Positions 10,500 through 47,981 are shown, counted from the stretch's first letter. The stretch: 64,000 nucleotides of DNA from a virus (IMGVR_UViG_3300047160_018755:64001-128000); one strand, 5' to 3'. The notes: a model not told the origin generated them from the sequence alone. Numbers and translations: made by a program.

Positions 10500-10657
10500 G
10501 CCGGTGTGCTACCGTTACACTAAGTCCGACAGAGGCAGCGTTTCACTCTAGACGTTTTGGCGACTTGATCAGGGCCGCTACTGGCTGTCCTAGCTGCATG
10601 TCCCTCCCACCGTATCAGGGCAAGAGGTTTGGTGTGGAGTCGAACCACTCCACCGGC
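10500..10657 (-). ncRNA. Permuted tRNA-like RNA A (T-arm first, D-arm last, about 100 nt structured insert)
   Basis: GCCGGTG..CACCGGC closing stem; GTGG-TTCGACT-CCAC at 5'; TA-GTGT-AACGGTA-GCAC at 3'. Confidence 0.6.
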
Positions 10658-10660
10658 TTT

Positions 10661-11107: not shown

Positions 11108-11184
11108 GCTGGCGACTTAAACCACTCGTCCACAGGCCCGATCTTTCGAACGAGCCCGGCGGGATTCGAACCCGCGTCTCCAGC
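11108..11184 (-). ncRNA. Permuted tRNA-like RNA B (YrlA-like)
   Basis: GCTGG-AGAC-GCGGG TTCGAAT CCCGC-CGGGCTC-GTTC GAAA GATC-GGGCCTG-TG-GAC GAGTGGTTTAA GTC-G-CCAGC. Confidence 0.8.
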
Positions 11185-11692: not shown

Positions 11693-11766
11693 CTCCAGTG
11701 TGCTACCTTTACACTACCGCGCCCATAGTGGTGGGCTTGGGCGGACTTGAACCGCTACTCCTGGAG
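11693..11766 (-). ncRNA. Permuted tRNA-like RNA C
   Basis: CTCCAG-GAGTA-GCGG TTCAAGT CCGC-CCAAGCCC-ACCACTAT-GGGCGCGG-TA-GTGT AAAGGTA GCAC-A-CTGGAG. Confidence 0.75.
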
Positions 11767-32876: not shown

Positions 32877-33012
32877 CAGGTATCCCTCCTGACAACCAAG
32901 ATTAAGAGCGGAACAAAAAAGAAGGAAGGGTCAGGTCCCGCACCCTCTCCGTTTTCTGCGTTACCGGAGACTCCCGTGCAGTAAGGGATTGTGAGGTGAA
33001 GGACCTGATTTG

Positions 33013-33394
33013 TGGACCCGCGGGGAGTCGAACCCCGATGTCGGAAACTTTGCGATCGAGCTTGTACGTGCGTTTCCTCGTTTTCGGGGGCTAGGGATCG
33101 AGGTGTCCCGGACTACGGCGCCCTCCACCACCTGGTTTTGCTGACCAGGAACAGTTGGTTTCCCTCTGTAGTTGTTTCTCAGGCGGCTACTAAGGGGCCT
33201 CACCGTCTGAGATTCGATTAAGCCGCGAGCGCGCGAGCGCCGTAGCCACCGAAACCGTTCGCCTCGATCAGATCGAAGGGAACGTCGAACTCATCGTTCG
33301 CTTTTCTTTTTTGGTCTTCTTTTTACGAGGCCTGATGACCAACCTCGGCACGCGTCTCAGTCCCTCTGTTCCCGGTCGATGCCGGTTCGGGCCC
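33013..33394 (-). ncRNA. ssrA: tmRNA
   Basis: 5' GGGCCCG-AACCGGCATCGAC; 3' GGGGTTCGACTCCCC-GCGGGTCCA with G3:U70; tag ORF 33301-33218 ANDEFDVPFDLIEANGFGGYGARALAA*. Confidence 0.92.
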
Positions 33395-39682: not shown

Positions 39683-39755
39683 CGCTGCTGGCGGGATTCG
39701 AACCCGACCTCACGCGATAGACAGTCGCGCAGCCTCACCAGATGCTTACAGCAGC
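39683..39755 (-). tRNA. tRNA-Asp(GTC)
   Basis: Loop CTGTCTA, G73. Confidence 0.85.
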
Positions 39756-39763
39756 AGAGCTTG

Positions 39764-39835
39764 TCGCACCCGCAGGAATTGAACCTGCGCGCCCGGGATT
39801 TCAATCCGGTGCTCTACCAACTGAGCTAGGGTGCG
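39764..39835 (-). tRNA. tRNA-Phe(GAA)
   Basis: Loop TTGAAAT. Confidence 0.85.
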
Positions 39836-39873
39836 TTCTCGATCGTTTGTGCCGGGCTTCCCGGCTTGTCGCT

Positions 39874-40014
39874 TTACTTGATCCCGGAGGGATCGAAGCG
39901 ATCGAGCGCACCCTGTGCTGGGCGCTGGTGTTGCTGATGGCGCGGATAACGCACGATCCGGCCACCGGTCGTAATGCCGGTTCGAATCGTGGTGTATGTG
40001 GTCGCGGTCAGCAT
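39874..40014 (-). CDS. Putative leader peptide of tRNA operon 2 (46 aa)
   Basis: MLTATTYTTIRTGITTGGRIVRYPRHQQHQRPAQGALDRFDPSGIK; shares TAATCTACTGAGNGTTCCA with the operon-1 leader. Confidence 0.65.
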   Translation of the reverse strand: MLTATTYTTIRTGITTGGRIVRYPRHQQHQRPAQGALDRFDPSGIK

Positions 40015-40147
40015 TGGAACACTCAGTAGATTAAGTCTGCCTCAGACGATCGTTGGAGTCAAGAAAAAAGAGGAGCCCGATCCTGTGGGCCCAGATTGTA
40101 CTTCTCTTCCCGTAGCCGTACGGGCTCCTCGTGTACCTTCTATCGAA

Positions 40148-40570
40148 TCACTCGCGCTTCGAGGGCGGAGATCCCGCGCACTCCAGGACCGCCCAGCACT
40201 CGTTCAGGAACGTCTGGACGTGATAGAAGCTCCAGTCGCCGGCCCAGTCGTGCTCCTCGAAGAACGTGCGCGCCGCGGCCTTGTTGTCGAACCACCGCAC
40301 GCCGCTCTCGATGCTGCCGGCCAGCTCCATCACCTCTTCCTTGGAGTCGCAGGCTTCCATCGCGTCGCAGCCGCTGCACGAGCCGTAGCCGATCGAGACG
40401 AAGCCGTAGCGGTCGCCGTCCTGGATGAGGTAGAAGAGGTCGCCCTGGTAGTCGCCCGCGCGTTCGTAGACGACGGTCTTACCGAGCGCGTCCACGATCT
40501 GCTCGTAGCTCGGGTAGGCCTTGCCGTAGTCCGTGTCGGGTCCAAACAGCTCTTCGTAGGTCTTGTTCAT
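40148..40570 (-). CDS. Conserved phage hypothetical protein
   Basis: GDYQG...GYGSCSGCD motif; GAGGA RBS. Confidence 0.7.
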   Translation of the reverse strand: MNKTYEELFGPDTDYGKAYPSYEQIVDALGKTVVYERAGDYQGDLFYLIQDGDRYGFVSIGYGSCSGCDAMEACDSKEEVMELAGSIESGVRWFDNKAAARTFFEEHDWAGDWSFYHVQTFLNECWAVLECAGSPPSKRE

Positions 40571-40629
40571 GGCGATCCTCGTTTTCTTTCTATCGAATCT
40601 AGGAACCGAAAGCAAGAACTATCGAATCG

Positions 40630-40701
40630 TGCCCCCGCCGGGATTCGAACCCGGAGCTTCCTGGTTTGAGCAGGCTGTCTGTGCCGTTGAACTACGAGGG
40701 C
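40630..40701 (-). tRNA. tRNA-Leu(CAA), short variable loop
   Basis: Loop CTCAAAC, A73, 4-nt variable region. Confidence 0.75.
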
Positions 40702-40702
40702 T

Positions 40703-40779
40703 TGGTACCCGGAGCGGGATTCGAACCCGCAACCTCCGCGTTCTGAGCGCGTTGCCTCTGCCGATTGAGCTACCCGGGC
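40703..40779 (-). tRNA. tRNA-Leu(CAG), short variable loop
   Basis: Loop CTCAGAA, A73, CCA, 5-nt variable region. Confidence 0.8.
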
Positions 40780-40784
40780 GTGAG

Positions 40785-40869
40785 TGCGATCGACAGGACT
40801 CGAACCTGCACGCCCGTTACGGGCACCGGACTCTCAATCCGGCGGGTCTACCAATTCCCCCACGATCGC
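40785..40869 (-). tRNA. tRNA-Leu(GAG)
   Basis: CCGGA-TTGAGAG-TCCGG, long variable arm. Confidence 0.9.
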
Positions 40870-40889
40870 GTATGTCGGCGCCGAAGCGC

Positions 40890-40920
40890 AAAAATGCTGT
40901 ACTCGCTTACGCGAGCAGCA
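40890..40920 (-). terminator. Attenuator-type terminator overlapping the Leu leader ORF
   Basis: TGCTG-CTCGC-GTAA-GCGAG-TA-CAGCA-TTTTT. Confidence 0.75.
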
Positions 40921-40951
40921 ACGACAGACGGGATAGCAAGCGGGTGAACAT
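40907..40951 (-). CDS. Leu-rich leader peptide MFTRLLSRLSLLLA
   Basis: 6 Leu in 14 codons; TAATCTT upstream; stop codon lies in the terminator loop. Confidence 0.75.
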   Translation of the reverse strand: MFTRLLSRLSLLLA

Positions 40952-41121
40952 TGGTACTCGGAAGATTACTATCGAATCTAGGGAATGTCTAGAACAAAAT
41001 TCCGACAACCAAGCCGACGCCGAAGGTGACCGCCGCGATGCACACGTAGTACATCACGACGGGCAGCACCCCGGAGTTCTGCGGCTGGTGGTCGCGGATG
41101 AATTTCAGCGGGTTGATCATG

Positions 41122-45449: not shown

Positions 45450-47981
45450 TTACGAGGACTGCTGGACCTGCGTGATGCTGAACGTGATCGGGATGAAGTA
45501 CAGCGCGGTCGCCGCCTTCACCTCGGCGCTCACCACCATGGCGGGGCCGGAGATCTTGATGACCGGGTTCTTGTAACCCTTCGGCGCGTCGTCGCTGAAC
45601 GCGATGAGCTTCACGCGGCGGAGGTTGTCCATGATGGCGTCGAGGACCGAGAGGGCCTGCGCCACCGTGACGTCCGCGAGGGACTGACCGACGAACGCCT
45701 GCTCCATGATCTGCGCCGTGGTGAGCGAGATGATGTCCGCGTCGTACACAGCCTGGATGCTGTTGTAGACGAAGTTGTTGTCGCGACCGTACGTCGTCTG
45801 GTCGGAGACGTAGCGGAAGCCACCCGTCGGCGGGCGCGCGATCGTGAGGAGACCCGCCTCCAGCGCCAGCTCGACGGCGTCGTCGTCCTGGTCGTTGAAG
45901 TCCCCGGCCGCCTGGAGAGCGCCCGAGATGTTGATCCCCTTGTTGAAGATCGCCTTGTAGAAGCCCGCGGCCTGCATGCCCGCGGCCTTGACCGCGTTCA
46001 TCCAGGGCTGGAACTGCGCGAGCGTTCCGACCGAGTTGTTGTCGCGCACGTCTTGGAACGAGAGCGAGCAGCGGAACGAGGCCAGCTCGCCGGCCGCTTC
46101 CTTCGCGTTCGCGATCGTGTCGCGGAGCGAGAGGAACGCCTGGCGGTTGCGGCGCTTCTTCAGCGTCGACATCTGGAGGACGTGCGAGCGGGTGTTCGCG
46201 TGCACGGCCGCGATGGTGTACGTCGACGACGGATCGGTCAGACCATCCGCGATGTCGGCGCTCGCGTCACGCGAGAACAGCGGCACGACGAAGTTGCCAC
46301 GAACCATCTTGAGCGCGTCGAGAGCTTGCTGGATCAGCGCGTCCGTGGTCGCACCCTTGGCGCCGCCCGAGAGGAACGAGACGCCCACCGTCGGAGCCGG
46401 GAGGCCCTTGATGTCCGCCTTGTTCAGCTGCGTGAGGAAGCCGTTGGCCGCGAGGGTCGTGAAGAACTTGTACGCGTCCTGCTTGATGCGGCCGGGGGCG
46501 ACGCTGGCGAACGTCGAGCAGATGCCGTACGTGCCCTGGTCGAGGCTCGTCGACGGCTGCGATCCGAGGACTGCCGTGCCCGGGGCGCACGTGAAGCCGG
46601 TGAGCGAGTCGAAGTACGCCGCGAGGTCCGCGATCGTCGGGTAGTCCGCGAGGACCGCCGAGAACGTGCCCGCGTTCGCACCACCGACCGCCGTGACCGT
46701 GAGGGTCACGCCGTCGATCGTCGCCGTGGCCGTCGTGCCCTCGTAGCCGATCTCCAGGGCGATGGCGCCGCCCGCGAAGATGTCGTTGACGATGTTGTCG
46801 ACCTGGCGCGACTCCGTCAGGTCCGCGACGTACTCCGTCGCCGACGTGATGAGGTTGCCGTTCGTCGAGTTGGTGATCCAGTTCACCTTCGTCGGAACGC
46901 CGTTCACAAGCTTCCAGCAGATGAAGTTGAGCAGGCCCGTGTGGCTCGACAGCTCGTCGATCTGGAGGCTCTTGCCGGTACCCGGGACGGGGTTGGTGCT
47001 CGCGAGGCTCACCGTGATGGCGCTGAACGTCTGGACGTCCGCCGTGCCAACGATGGCCGTCGCGCCCTTGGACGTCGGCGTGGTCAGCTGGTTCGGCGTG
47101 CCCGCGACGTCGAGGAGCTTCGTCGCGTAGATGGTCTTGCCCGCGCCGCCCGTGCCCGTCACGATGTACGAGCCGGCCGCAGCCGCGTTCGACGTCGCCA
47201 TCGCCGACGTGGTCGGGATGTAGAGCGTGTCACCCGCGACCGGGAGGTGGTCGAAGACCACCGAACGATCGATCTGCACGTTGTTGCCCGTGAGGACCGT
47301 GATCGCGAGCGTGCCCGTGGTTCCCGTCAGCGGGGACTCCGCCGCACCGCCCGTCGTGGTGATGCCCGCGATGCCCGCGAGCGTCGTGATCCACGTGGTG
47401 GGAGGGTCGAGGGCCGCCATGTTGGCCGCGTGCGAAGCGCCGCCGTTGAGGCGGAGGTCGACGTCGGTCGCCGCGATGGGGAGCATGAGCGCGAACGCGC
47501 CCGTGGTCGGAACAGCCTCGGACGTCTTCGCCGTGACCTGGAACGAGATCAGGTTGCCGAGCTTGCCGTAGGACTTGTCCTGGAGCGCGCCGACGCCCGG
47601 GGCGTAGCCCGTGCCGTACTCGGAGCTGTCCCAGTGGTAGAGGTGCGCCGTCGCCTTGGTCGACGGGTTGGTCTTCACGAGGATGAAGCCCGCGGGCGCG
47701 CCCTGGATCTGGGGATCGTTGGCGGGCACAGCGCCGCCGTTGAACGCGTCGACCAGGCGGCCGGACACGTACTTCGCCTTGACGTCACCGATCTGGCCGG
47801 GACCGAAGAAGTTGGACGCGATGTCCGTCTCCTGCGTGAAGTCCGGCCCCTGCTCCGCCTCGCCGACGAGCATGATCACGCCCGTGGTCGCGAGACCCGA
47901 GTTTTGCTGGACGACGTTGTAGCGAGCGTAGCCGCCCGGGATAGTCAGGACGCCAGCGTCGGTGGGGTAATTCTGAGCCAT
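45450..47981 (-). CDS. Tail sheath protein
   Basis: IPGGYAR...LVGEAEQGP N-terminus; FLSGGAKG; VSDQTTY...YNSIQ C-terminus. Confidence 0.88.
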   Translation of the reverse strand: MAQNYPTDAGVLTIPGGYARYNVVQQNSGLATTGVIMLVGEAEQGPDFTQETDIASNFFGPGQIGDVKAKYVSGRLVDAFNGGAVPANDPQIQGAPAGFILVKTNPSTKATAHLYHWDSSEYGTGYAPGVGALQDKSYGKLGNLISFQVTAKTSEAVPTTGAFALMLPIAATDVDLRLNGGASHAANMAALDPPTTWITTLAGIAGITTTGGAAESPLTGTTGTLAITVLTGNNVQIDRSVVFDHLPVAGDTLYIPTTSAMATSNAAAAGSYIVTGTGGAGKTIYATKLLDVAGTPNQLTTPTSKGATAIVGTADVQTFSAITVSLASTNPVPGTGKSLQIDELSSHTGLLNFICWKLVNGVPTKVNWITNSTNGNLITSATEYVADLTESRQVDNIVNDIFAGGAIALEIGYEGTTATATIDGVTLTVTAVGGANAGTFSAVLADYPTIADLAAYFDSLTGFTCAPGTAVLGSQPSTSLDQGTYGICSTFASVAPGRIKQDAYKFFTTLAANGFLTQLNKADIKGLPAPTVGVSFLSGGAKGATTDALIQQALDALKMVRGNFVVPLFSRDASADIADGLTDPSSTYTIAAVHANTRSHVLQMSTLKKRRNRQAFLSLRDTIANAKEAAGELASFRCSLSFQDVRDNNSVGTLAQFQPWMNAVKAAGMQAAGFYKAIFNKGINISGALQAAGDFNDQDDDAVELALEAGLLTIARPPTGGFRYVSDQTTYGRDNNFVYNSIQAVYDADIISLTTAQIMEQAFVGQSLADVTVAQALSVLDAIMDNLRRVKLIAFSDDAPKGYKNPVIKISGPAMVVSAEVKAATALYFIPITFSITQVQQSS

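Follow-up and report, generated by a model that had tools for sequence, protein, structure and literature searches.

Why phages carry tRNA genes, and how these genes are controlled, is an open question. It takes a concrete form in a locus of a soil phage where a short open reading frame (ORF) rich in leucine codons, together with a hairpin followed by a run of U residues, is placed directly upstream of three tRNA-Leu genes: could ribosomes that translate such a leader decide whether the tRNA genes are transcribed? The locus lies within a window of 64,000 nucleotides, which corresponds to bases 64001-128000 of a complete virus record of 182,279 bp from IMG/VR (IMGVR_UViG_3300047160_018755), a genome with terminal repeats and a G+C content of 63%. 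A first-pass annotation of the window proposed that a ribosome stalled on the Leu codons when charged tRNA-Leu is scarce would block a terminator and switch on the tRNA genes, and considered such demand-driven control of phage tRNA genes to be new. The claim of novelty holds in that no description was found in the literature, either of this kind of control or of leader peptides placed before tRNA genes.

The source phage and the surroundings of the locus

No close relative of the source phage was found by protein and pattern searches in IMG/VR and in a set of 5.8 billion proteins. By its tail sheath protein (45450-47981, minus strand), the nearest cultured phage is Myxococcus phage Mx1, with 45% identity, and at this distance the host is uncertain. 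The sheath has no match in Ceeclamvirinae and, being Mx1-like, indicates that this phage is not close kin of the mycobacteriophages that carry a similar tRNA-Leu module; modules composed of tRNA genes plus a leader may be transferred between phage lineages. The leader is not an assembly error, as it recurs without a single difference in short contigs of three soil metagenome runs, and the short contigs of four soil DNA runs are identical to the window and therefore offer no natural variation for analysis.

A gene for a papain-family peptidase and a 43-codon membrane-protein ORF are located upstream of the Leu leader. Downstream of the tRNA-Leu unit there is a gene for a 140-aa protein, to which no family was assigned and which has no relative in IMG/VR and a best identity of 48% in the 5.8-billion-protein set. 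The tRNA-Leu unit is found in none of the six IMG/VR loci that have the upstream peptidase (0/6), and two peptidase-sharing loci with tRNAs have no tRNA-matched ORFs. A scan of IMG/VR for the pattern of promoter plus TAATCT box (see below) gave eight matches, all of them rejected as chance occurrences in unrelated AT-rich phages.

Two further observations concern the RNA genes of this phage. It encodes a tmRNA (33012-33394, minus strand) with an unusually long tag of 27 residues that ends in ALAA. In addition, at 11693-11766, 11108-11184 and about 10500-10660 (minus strand), amid regular tRNA genes, a piece resembling a tRNA 3' half (T arm, acceptor strand and CCA) precedes a 5' half (acceptor strand and D arm), an arrangement, recognized by eye only, that looks like permuted or split tRNA elements.

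The Leu leader module

All the elements reported in the first-pass annotation are present as described: GATTCGATAG, the sequence TAATCTT, a 14-codon ORF, a hairpin whose loop contains the stop codon, a U5 tract and three tRNA-Leu genes (Table 1). The Leu codons of the ORF are TTG, CTA, CTG, TTG, CTG and CTC, the last three of which belong to the hairpin. In this hairpin the 5' arm (40920-40911) is followed by a GTAA loop that contains the stop codon (40910-40907) and by a 3' arm (40906-40895) with a 2-nt bulge; the T5 tract (40894-40890) comes directly after it. The hairpin is the minimum-energy fold, with a dG of -14.2 kcal/mol for the stem alone, and the hairpin-U5 resembles other terminators of the phage (44861-44837 and 40131-40065). 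In minimum-energy folds an outer helix, 40926-40922 with 40877-40873, can also enclose both this hairpin and the second one. The predicted terminator stands between the promoter-like boxes and the tRNAs, and no promoter-like -10 was found between the ORF with its terminator and the tRNA-Leu genes. On the upstream side, no clear terminator was found between the preceding operon and the leader. The order of predicted promoter, short ORF, candidate terminator and genes is the signature of attenuation. An Rfam scan of 39700-41100 (E <= 1) returned tRNAs and noise only.

Table 1. Coordinates of the features of the Leu leader module and of its paralogues (window numbering unless stated otherwise).
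Feature	Position	Strand	Description
43-codon membrane-protein ORF	stop at 40989	-	directly upstream of the promoter boxes
GATTCGATAG	40978-40969	-	phage promoter-like motif; its TAG opens a -10-like hexamer, TAGTAA
TAATCT box	40968-40963	-	fits the TANNNT -10 form; YGAG follows
Leu leader ORF	40951-40907 (ATG at 40951, TAA 40909-40907)	-	14 codons + TAA; encodes MFTRLLSRLSLLLA
Terminator	40920-40890	-	10-bp bulged hairpin + U5; 5' arm made of Leu codons 11-13 + GCG
Second hairpin	40889-40878	-	GCGC-UUCG-GCGC; in minimum-energy folds
tRNA-Leu(GAG)	40869-40784	-	ARAGORN + Rfam; long variable arm; 8 nt past the second hairpin
tRNA-Leu(CAG)	40779-40703	-	ARAGORN + Rfam; 77 nt, without long variable arm
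tRNA-Leu(CAA)	40701-40629	-	ARAGORN + Rfam; 73 nt, without long variable arm
Module 2	40033-39874	-	TAATCT 40033-40028; 46-codon leader ORF 40014-39874
Module 3	12155-12014	-	TAATCT 12155-12150; 39-codon leader ORF 12133-12014
Module 4 (Ser)	genome C1 15135-14872, outside the window		GATTCGATAG, TAATCT, 14-codon ORF, hairpin, tRNA-Ser(GCT)

Leucine accounts for 6 of 13 residues of the leader, compared with 9.7% in the genes of the phage (binomial p = 7.6e-4), and by its Leu fraction the ORF ranks first among 517 size-matched ATG ORFs of the six frames, with no equal among the others; the other five frames of the leader DNA have 0-1 Leu each. Rare codons for the sensed amino acid are typical of sensor leaders, and TTG and CTA, which are rare Leu codons with 10% of phage usage, account for 3/6 in the leader. 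The exact correspondence between TTG-CTG-CTC in the hairpin arm and the three anticodons, which had been emphasized in the first-pass annotation, is present but weak, since finding each of these codons once among three Leu codons has p ~0.045 given the Leu codon usage of the phage, and the paralogues described below match their tRNAs by amino acid only. Likewise, the three tRNA-Leu are able to decode about 96% of the Leu codons that the phage uses, which makes the figure of five readable codons out of six in the leader uninformative. Overall, the Leu leader ORF is real and selected, and it is tied to the tRNA-Leu genes.

The alternative is that the ORF is a product of chance, the hairpin-U5 being the terminator of the upstream peptidase/membrane-protein operon and the tRNAs arising from leaky read-through. 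Leu is a common residue, GC-rich stems often read CTG or CTC, and the codon triple taken alone would be of modest significance, but the Leu signal is specific to one frame and the promoter boxes lie upstream, not downstream, of the terminator; together with the paralogues and analogues presented in the next sections, this makes chance a very improbable origin.

Leu tRNAs normally possess a long variable arm, which is missing from tRNA-Leu(CAG) and tRNA-Leu(CAA). Short tRNAs with Leu anticodons are also found in Phabba, in Bxz1-type phages and in Magritte, and the Leu-rich leader in front of the unit gives indirect support to the view that these two tRNAs serve Leu codons.

Promoter-like boxes

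The motif GATTCGATAG occurs in 26 exact copies in the 182-kb genome versus 0 for the reversed control, and its copies are intergenic and always face the downstream gene. In many protein genes (e.g. window 37208-37194) the ATG comes 6-7 nt after the TAGAAN hexamer of this motif, which argues that it acts as a promoter whose mRNAs are often leaderless; judged by this spacing, the use of leaderless mRNAs seems widespread in the source phage. The TAATCT box followed by YGAG is far more restricted, with only three copies in 182 kb, each preceding a leader ORF, and a fourth TAATCT with variant spacing precedes the Ser leader. Every one of these copies is placed 11-16 nt before the ATG of a short ORF that lies directly before a tRNA unit. 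In the Leu leader, which has no Shine-Dalgarno sequence beyond GAG, 11 nt separate the TAATCT hexamer from the ATG, giving a predicted 5' UTR of 4-8 nt and hence an mRNA that is not strictly leaderless.

Another copy of GATTCGATAG overlaps the stop codon of the 140-aa protein gene (element at 40149-40060, minus strand) and is followed, about 9 nt on, by a long hairpin, GAGGAGCCCG ... CGGGCTCCTC, with a T6 tract. This element could be either a small RNA of about 75 nt made from GATTCGATAG or merely the terminator of the 140-aa gene. Its hairpin divides the Leu unit from the next leader, which consequently needs its own TAATCT as promoter.

Paralogous leaders in the same genome

Four tRNA-matched leader modules are present in the 182-kb genome, and in each of them a TAATCT box and a short ORF stand ahead of a tRNA unit. 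The residues that match the leader's own tRNA unit are 6/13 in the Leu leader, 32/45 in the leader 40014-39874, 31/38 in the leader 12133-12014 and 8/13 in the Ser leader. The leader 40014-39874 precedes tRNAs for Phe, Asp, Pro, His, Tyr, Thr, Thr, Gln, Ile, Arg, Arg and Gln, and its matching residues are among the nine amino acids of this unit. The leader 12133-12014 precedes tRNAs for Asn, Val, Val, Ala, Lys, Met, Gly, Gly, Lys, Trp and Glu (eight amino acids) and has a hairpin and a U4 tract directly after the stop codon. The Ser leader ORF (genome 15104-15060) encodes MKRTSSSSPSSSSR, with eight Ser that use five of the six Ser codons; its stop codon is found in a hairpin loop, followed by about 100 nt of structured spacer and then by tRNA-Ser(GCT). 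A U tract after the hairpin was found in neither the leader 40014-39874 nor the Ser leader, two of the three paralogues, and an outer helix with two hairpins recurs in the Leu leader and in the leader 40014-39874.

The fraction of residues matching the own unit is 0.46-0.82 in the four leaders, versus 0-0.31 for the other units; each leader ranks 1st-3rd among 517-885 size-matched ORFs, and the match is seen only in the frame of the ORF. This correspondence is at the level of the amino acid and not of the isoacceptor, as tRNA-Ser(GCT) reads only 3/8 of the Ser codons of the Ser leader and tRNA-Ala(CGC) 2/9 of the Ala codons of the leader 12133-12014. The Leu leader, in turn, contains six Leu and only two Ser, and tRNA-Ser lies elsewhere with a Ser leader of its own, which indicates that leader content follows tRNA content. 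Four modules with tRNA-matched ORFs are not the result of chance, and the existence of four codon-matched paralogues with a common box is a strong argument against a fortuitous Leu ORF.

The paralogues also bear on the idea that the ORF produces a small hydrophobic peptide that is itself functional. MFTRLLSRLSLLLA is hydrophobic and signal-peptide-like, but the paralogous peptides share only their first residues (Met, one or more variable residues and then Thr as residue 3 or 4); beyond these, their compositions are unrelated and vary with the tRNA units, so that an independent peptide function is extremely unlikely.

Leaders in other phages

The persistence of the short ORF at homologous loci, on which the first-pass annotation depended, is confirmed by the three paralogues and by analogues in cultured phages. 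The tRNA-Leu pair aligns with a pair of Mycobacterium phage Phabba, and no DNA-level homology of the leader itself could be detected between the source phage and other phages. Phabba has three tRNA units, each opened by an unannotated short ORF located 7 nt after TACAGT or TACGGT. MFALLSLSSSLRLS precedes tRNA-Ser and tRNA-Leu(CAG, GAG, CAA), the same Leu anticodons as in the source phage; MRTNRLNRQQ precedes tRNA-Gln and tRNA-Asn; and a 24-codon ORF that ends in Tyr-Arg-Pro-Trp-His precedes Pro, Trp, Tyr and further tRNAs. The Ser/Leu leader is half Ser and half Leu where tRNA-Ser accompanies the Leu tRNAs. Since the Ceeclamvirinae ORFs start exactly 7 nt after a TANNNT hexamer, they are predicted to be leaderless.

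The Ser/Leu and Gln/Asn leaders are kept in Bixzunavirus (Bxz1, BeanWater, Norm, CharlieB, Yucca, Lukilu and Tonenili), and between Bixzunavirus and Myrnavirus all their indels are of whole codons, so that the frame is kept. Three Ser codons differ between the lineages by synonymous changes and a fourth has changed from TCG to AGC, and the stop-codon hairpin of Ceeclamvirinae has been rebuilt from different sequence. In Microbacterium phage Magritte, TTGACA-18-TAACGT is followed after 7 nt by MNTAYRFEEHLDLPI and then by tRNAs for Pro, Asp, Glu, Glu, Tyr, Phe, Leu and Leu; this unannotated ORF, too, is predicted to be leaderless. The frame retained through indels in the analogues of Ceeclamvirinae and Magritte is a further point against a chance ORF. 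All the leaders have Thr at position 3 or 4 except the Ser/Leu leader of Ceeclamvirinae, which has Ala at position 3.

The RNA structures are more varied. A stop-codon hairpin is common to the Ser leader, Bxz1, Phabba and Magritte. It has no U tract in the Ser leader, the Ceeclamvirinae hairpins lack one too, and the Magritte leader contains three G6/C6/G6 regions and a U tract directly after the stop. The main-array ORF of Myrna has a GTG start and an insertion of one codon, which leaves the frame intact. In Myrnavirus the main-array leader is followed by interleaved helices (GUCGUC/GACGAC versus CUUUCGAGCCG/CGGCUCGAAG) and by a small hairpin with a U-rich tail, and as modelled it is a full attenuator switch. 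The folds of Magritte and of the Phabba/Myrna main leaders shift towards the terminator with a ribosome on the stop codon and towards read-through with a ribosome stalled further upstream.

A simple scan of the tRNA region of Myxococcus phage Mx1, restricted to ATG-start ORFs, gave no convincing leaders, and in the Vilmaviridae Aegeus and prophi86-1 the tRNA-Leu comes directly after a CDS or a tRNA, with no space for a leader.

Ribosome position and control of transcription

In the model, the ribosome occupies the RNA from 12 nt before to 14 nt after the first base of the P site. In constrained folds the terminator remains intact with the A site on codons 2-7, is melted at its base with the A site on codons 8-9 and cannot form once the A site has reached codon 10, up to and including the stop. 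Leu 9, 11, 12 and 13 are inside this masking zone and Leu5 (TTG) and Leu6 (CTA) are outside, so that a stall at the latter two would favour termination. The stalled-ribosome switch of the first-pass annotation is therefore upheld only in part: a ribosome on codon 8 through the stop does mask the hairpin, but an unstalled ribosome masks it too, and stalls at Leu5 or Leu6 leave the terminator in place. Because a ribosome that keeps pace masks the hairpin like a stalled one, an increase in tRNA-Leu upon scarcity needs a polymerase that lingers at the U tract. No antiterminator was found in the Leu leader, where the most stable competing folds have -3 to -7 kcal/mol versus -15.6 kcal/mol for the terminator, and, as masking is independent of stalling, the proposed switch is left without an OFF state of its own. 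That scarcity turns tRNA-Leu on is thus a possible direction, although not one that can be derived from the sequence.

With these restrictions, the leader probably links the production of tRNA-Leu to the quality with which ribosomes read Leu codons. The observations comprise the ordered parts, the frame-specific enrichment in Leu, the paralogues and the analogues of other phages, and from them we infer translation of the ORF, termination at the hairpin and a direction of control. The reading that we tentatively prefer, without granting it even odds, is a demand-driven gate in which a predicted translated leader would sense Leu decoding and control the sole route of polymerase into the tRNA-Leu genes. 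Transcription would begin only a few bases upstream of the ATG, at the promoter pair formed by GATTCGATAG and TAATCT, and polymerase would have to pass the hairpin-U5, in which Leu codons 11-13 supply the 5' arm and the stop codon lies in the loop. Any ribosome whose A site has reached codon 8 or a later codon would physically block the hairpin; with no ribosome there, the hairpin would form and transcription would end at about 40894-40890. When charged Leu-tRNA is short, the ribosome would dwell on Leu 9 and 11-13 and the arm would stay covered until polymerase is past the U tract, yielding more tRNA-Leu. If decoding is fast, the ribosome would be released at the stop codon while polymerase pauses on the U tract, and the hairpin would close. 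This direction would require that polymerase dwells at the U tract for longer than the ribosome takes to be released. The complete switches of Magritte and of the Phabba/Myrna main arrays speak for the demand-driven gate; the missing antiterminator and Shine-Dalgarno sequence, the hairpins without U tract in two of the three paralogues and in Ceeclamvirinae, and the negative ATG-ORF scan of Mx1 speak against it.

A gate of the opposite sign, based on transit time and coupling, is possible but somewhat doubtful. Slow decoding of Leu would here leave a lagging ribosome, the hairpin would form and tRNA-Leu would be turned off, so that tRNA synthesis would be matched to charging, as a cis-encoded and amino-acid-specific 'stringent' control or as a positive feedback via the phage tRNAs. 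The geometry fits this idea at least as simply, since the terminator is intact with the A site at codons 2-7 and blocked from codon 8 to the stop, and the two rarest Leu codons occupy positions 5 and 6. The leader 12133-12014, with its hairpin-U4 at the stop and cognate codons across the whole 39-codon ORF, looks more like a timer than a local stall site; a match to the amino acid rather than to the isoacceptor is what would be expected if charging supply is sensed; and the layout is like that of the pyrBI leader of E. coli, where a close ribosome prevents the attenuator hairpin. On the other hand, the complete switches in relatives (Magritte and the Phabba main array) are wired oppositely, a gate of this sign has no obvious benefit against depletion of host tRNAs, and it needs tight coupling of transcription and translation despite an almost absent 5' UTR.

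The leader could also act after transcription, which we regard as improbable. The two hairpins and the outer helix, which pairs late ORF codons with bases 5' of the first tRNA, would make a three-way junction that the ribosome remodels, affecting RNase P/E processing or the stability of the precursor, and the U5 would serve to insulate the protease operon. The recurrence of the outer helix and two hairpins in both the Leu and the 40014-39874 leaders, a stop-codon hairpin without U tract as the common feature of the Ser leader, Bxz1, Phabba and Magritte and the lack of a clear terminator between the upstream operon and the leader are in line with such a role. Against it, only the first tRNA of the unit would be affected, the hairpin-U5 is canonical and like the other terminators of the phage, and we know of no precedent for a ribosome-remodelled junction that controls the processing of tRNA precursors.

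Implications for phage tRNA genes

Considering all the phages together, the balance tips slightly towards the view that in several unrelated lineages, among them the classroom phages Bxz1, Myrna and Phabba, the tRNA genes are under a feedback that ribosomes sense. Each block would have a leader in its own amino acids, by which the phage would gauge the decoding of just these codons and adapt the supply of each block separately. As far as our literature search shows, this wiring of leaders to phage tRNA genes is recurrent and undescribed. If this view is correct, the supply of phage tRNAs would be regulated by decoding itself and the feedback might counter depletion of host tRNAs or tRNA-cleaving defences, the Leu module being its minimal form, in which one hairpin is both the target of the sensor and the terminator. 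In addition, the leaders provide an independent reading of the use of each odd phage tRNA, and they reveal a class of unannotated short ORFs, predicted to be functional, in hundreds of sequenced phages. The same layout is present in phages of Mycobacterium smegmatis and Microbacterium foliorum, which makes the idea directly testable by standard genetics.

Comparison with known regulators

Leader-peptide attenuators are well known from amino-acid operons, some specific for one amino acid (leuL, trpL, hisL and pheL) and others multivalent (thrL and ilvL). The Leu module is similar to the trpL/leuL type in having, within the 5' leader, a short ORF that is enriched in the relevant codons, rare ones included, a terminator between ORF and genes, a stop codon in the hairpin and a folding decided by ribosome position. 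It differs in that it would regulate tRNAs and not genes for synthesis, transport or charging, which is the new feature, in that the Leu leader has no antiterminator and is phage-borne, and in that several leaders coexist in one phage genome, each with a composition that follows the tRNA block behind it.

In pyrBI of E. coli the terminator hairpin is overlapped by the leader ORF, so that a ribosome following polymerase closely blocks the hairpin directly, without a third or fourth RNA region. The Leu leader ORF also overlaps its terminator hairpin and would act through direct occlusion by the ribosome, although its stop codon is placed in the hairpin loop, and pyrBI senses UTP via polymerase pausing and not the decoding of codons.

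In mycobacteria, leaderless short ORFs with polycysteine tracts work as attenuators in which stalled ribosomes block an mRNA structure (Canestrari et al., bioRxiv 10.1101/834739). Common to both systems are an unannotated short ORF rich in one amino acid, leaderless or, as predicted for the Leu module, nearly so, and several loci under one sensing principle; in contrast, the Leu module precedes tRNAs, which have no ribosome-binding site, and the structure concerned is a terminator. The distance from hexamer to ATG is 7 nt in Ceeclamvirinae and Magritte and 11-16 nt in the source phage, where the predicted 5' UTR is 4-10 nt.

T-box riboswitches bind uncharged tRNA directly and need no translation. 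They resemble the Leu module in coupling terminator read-through to the state of the tRNAs for one amino acid, but the signal in the Leu module is an open reading frame, and a T-box was ruled out by the lack of any match to its covariance model in the Rfam scan. From its arrangement, the Leu module is predicted to work like a leader-peptide attenuator, but one that has no antiterminator and is directed at tRNA genes.
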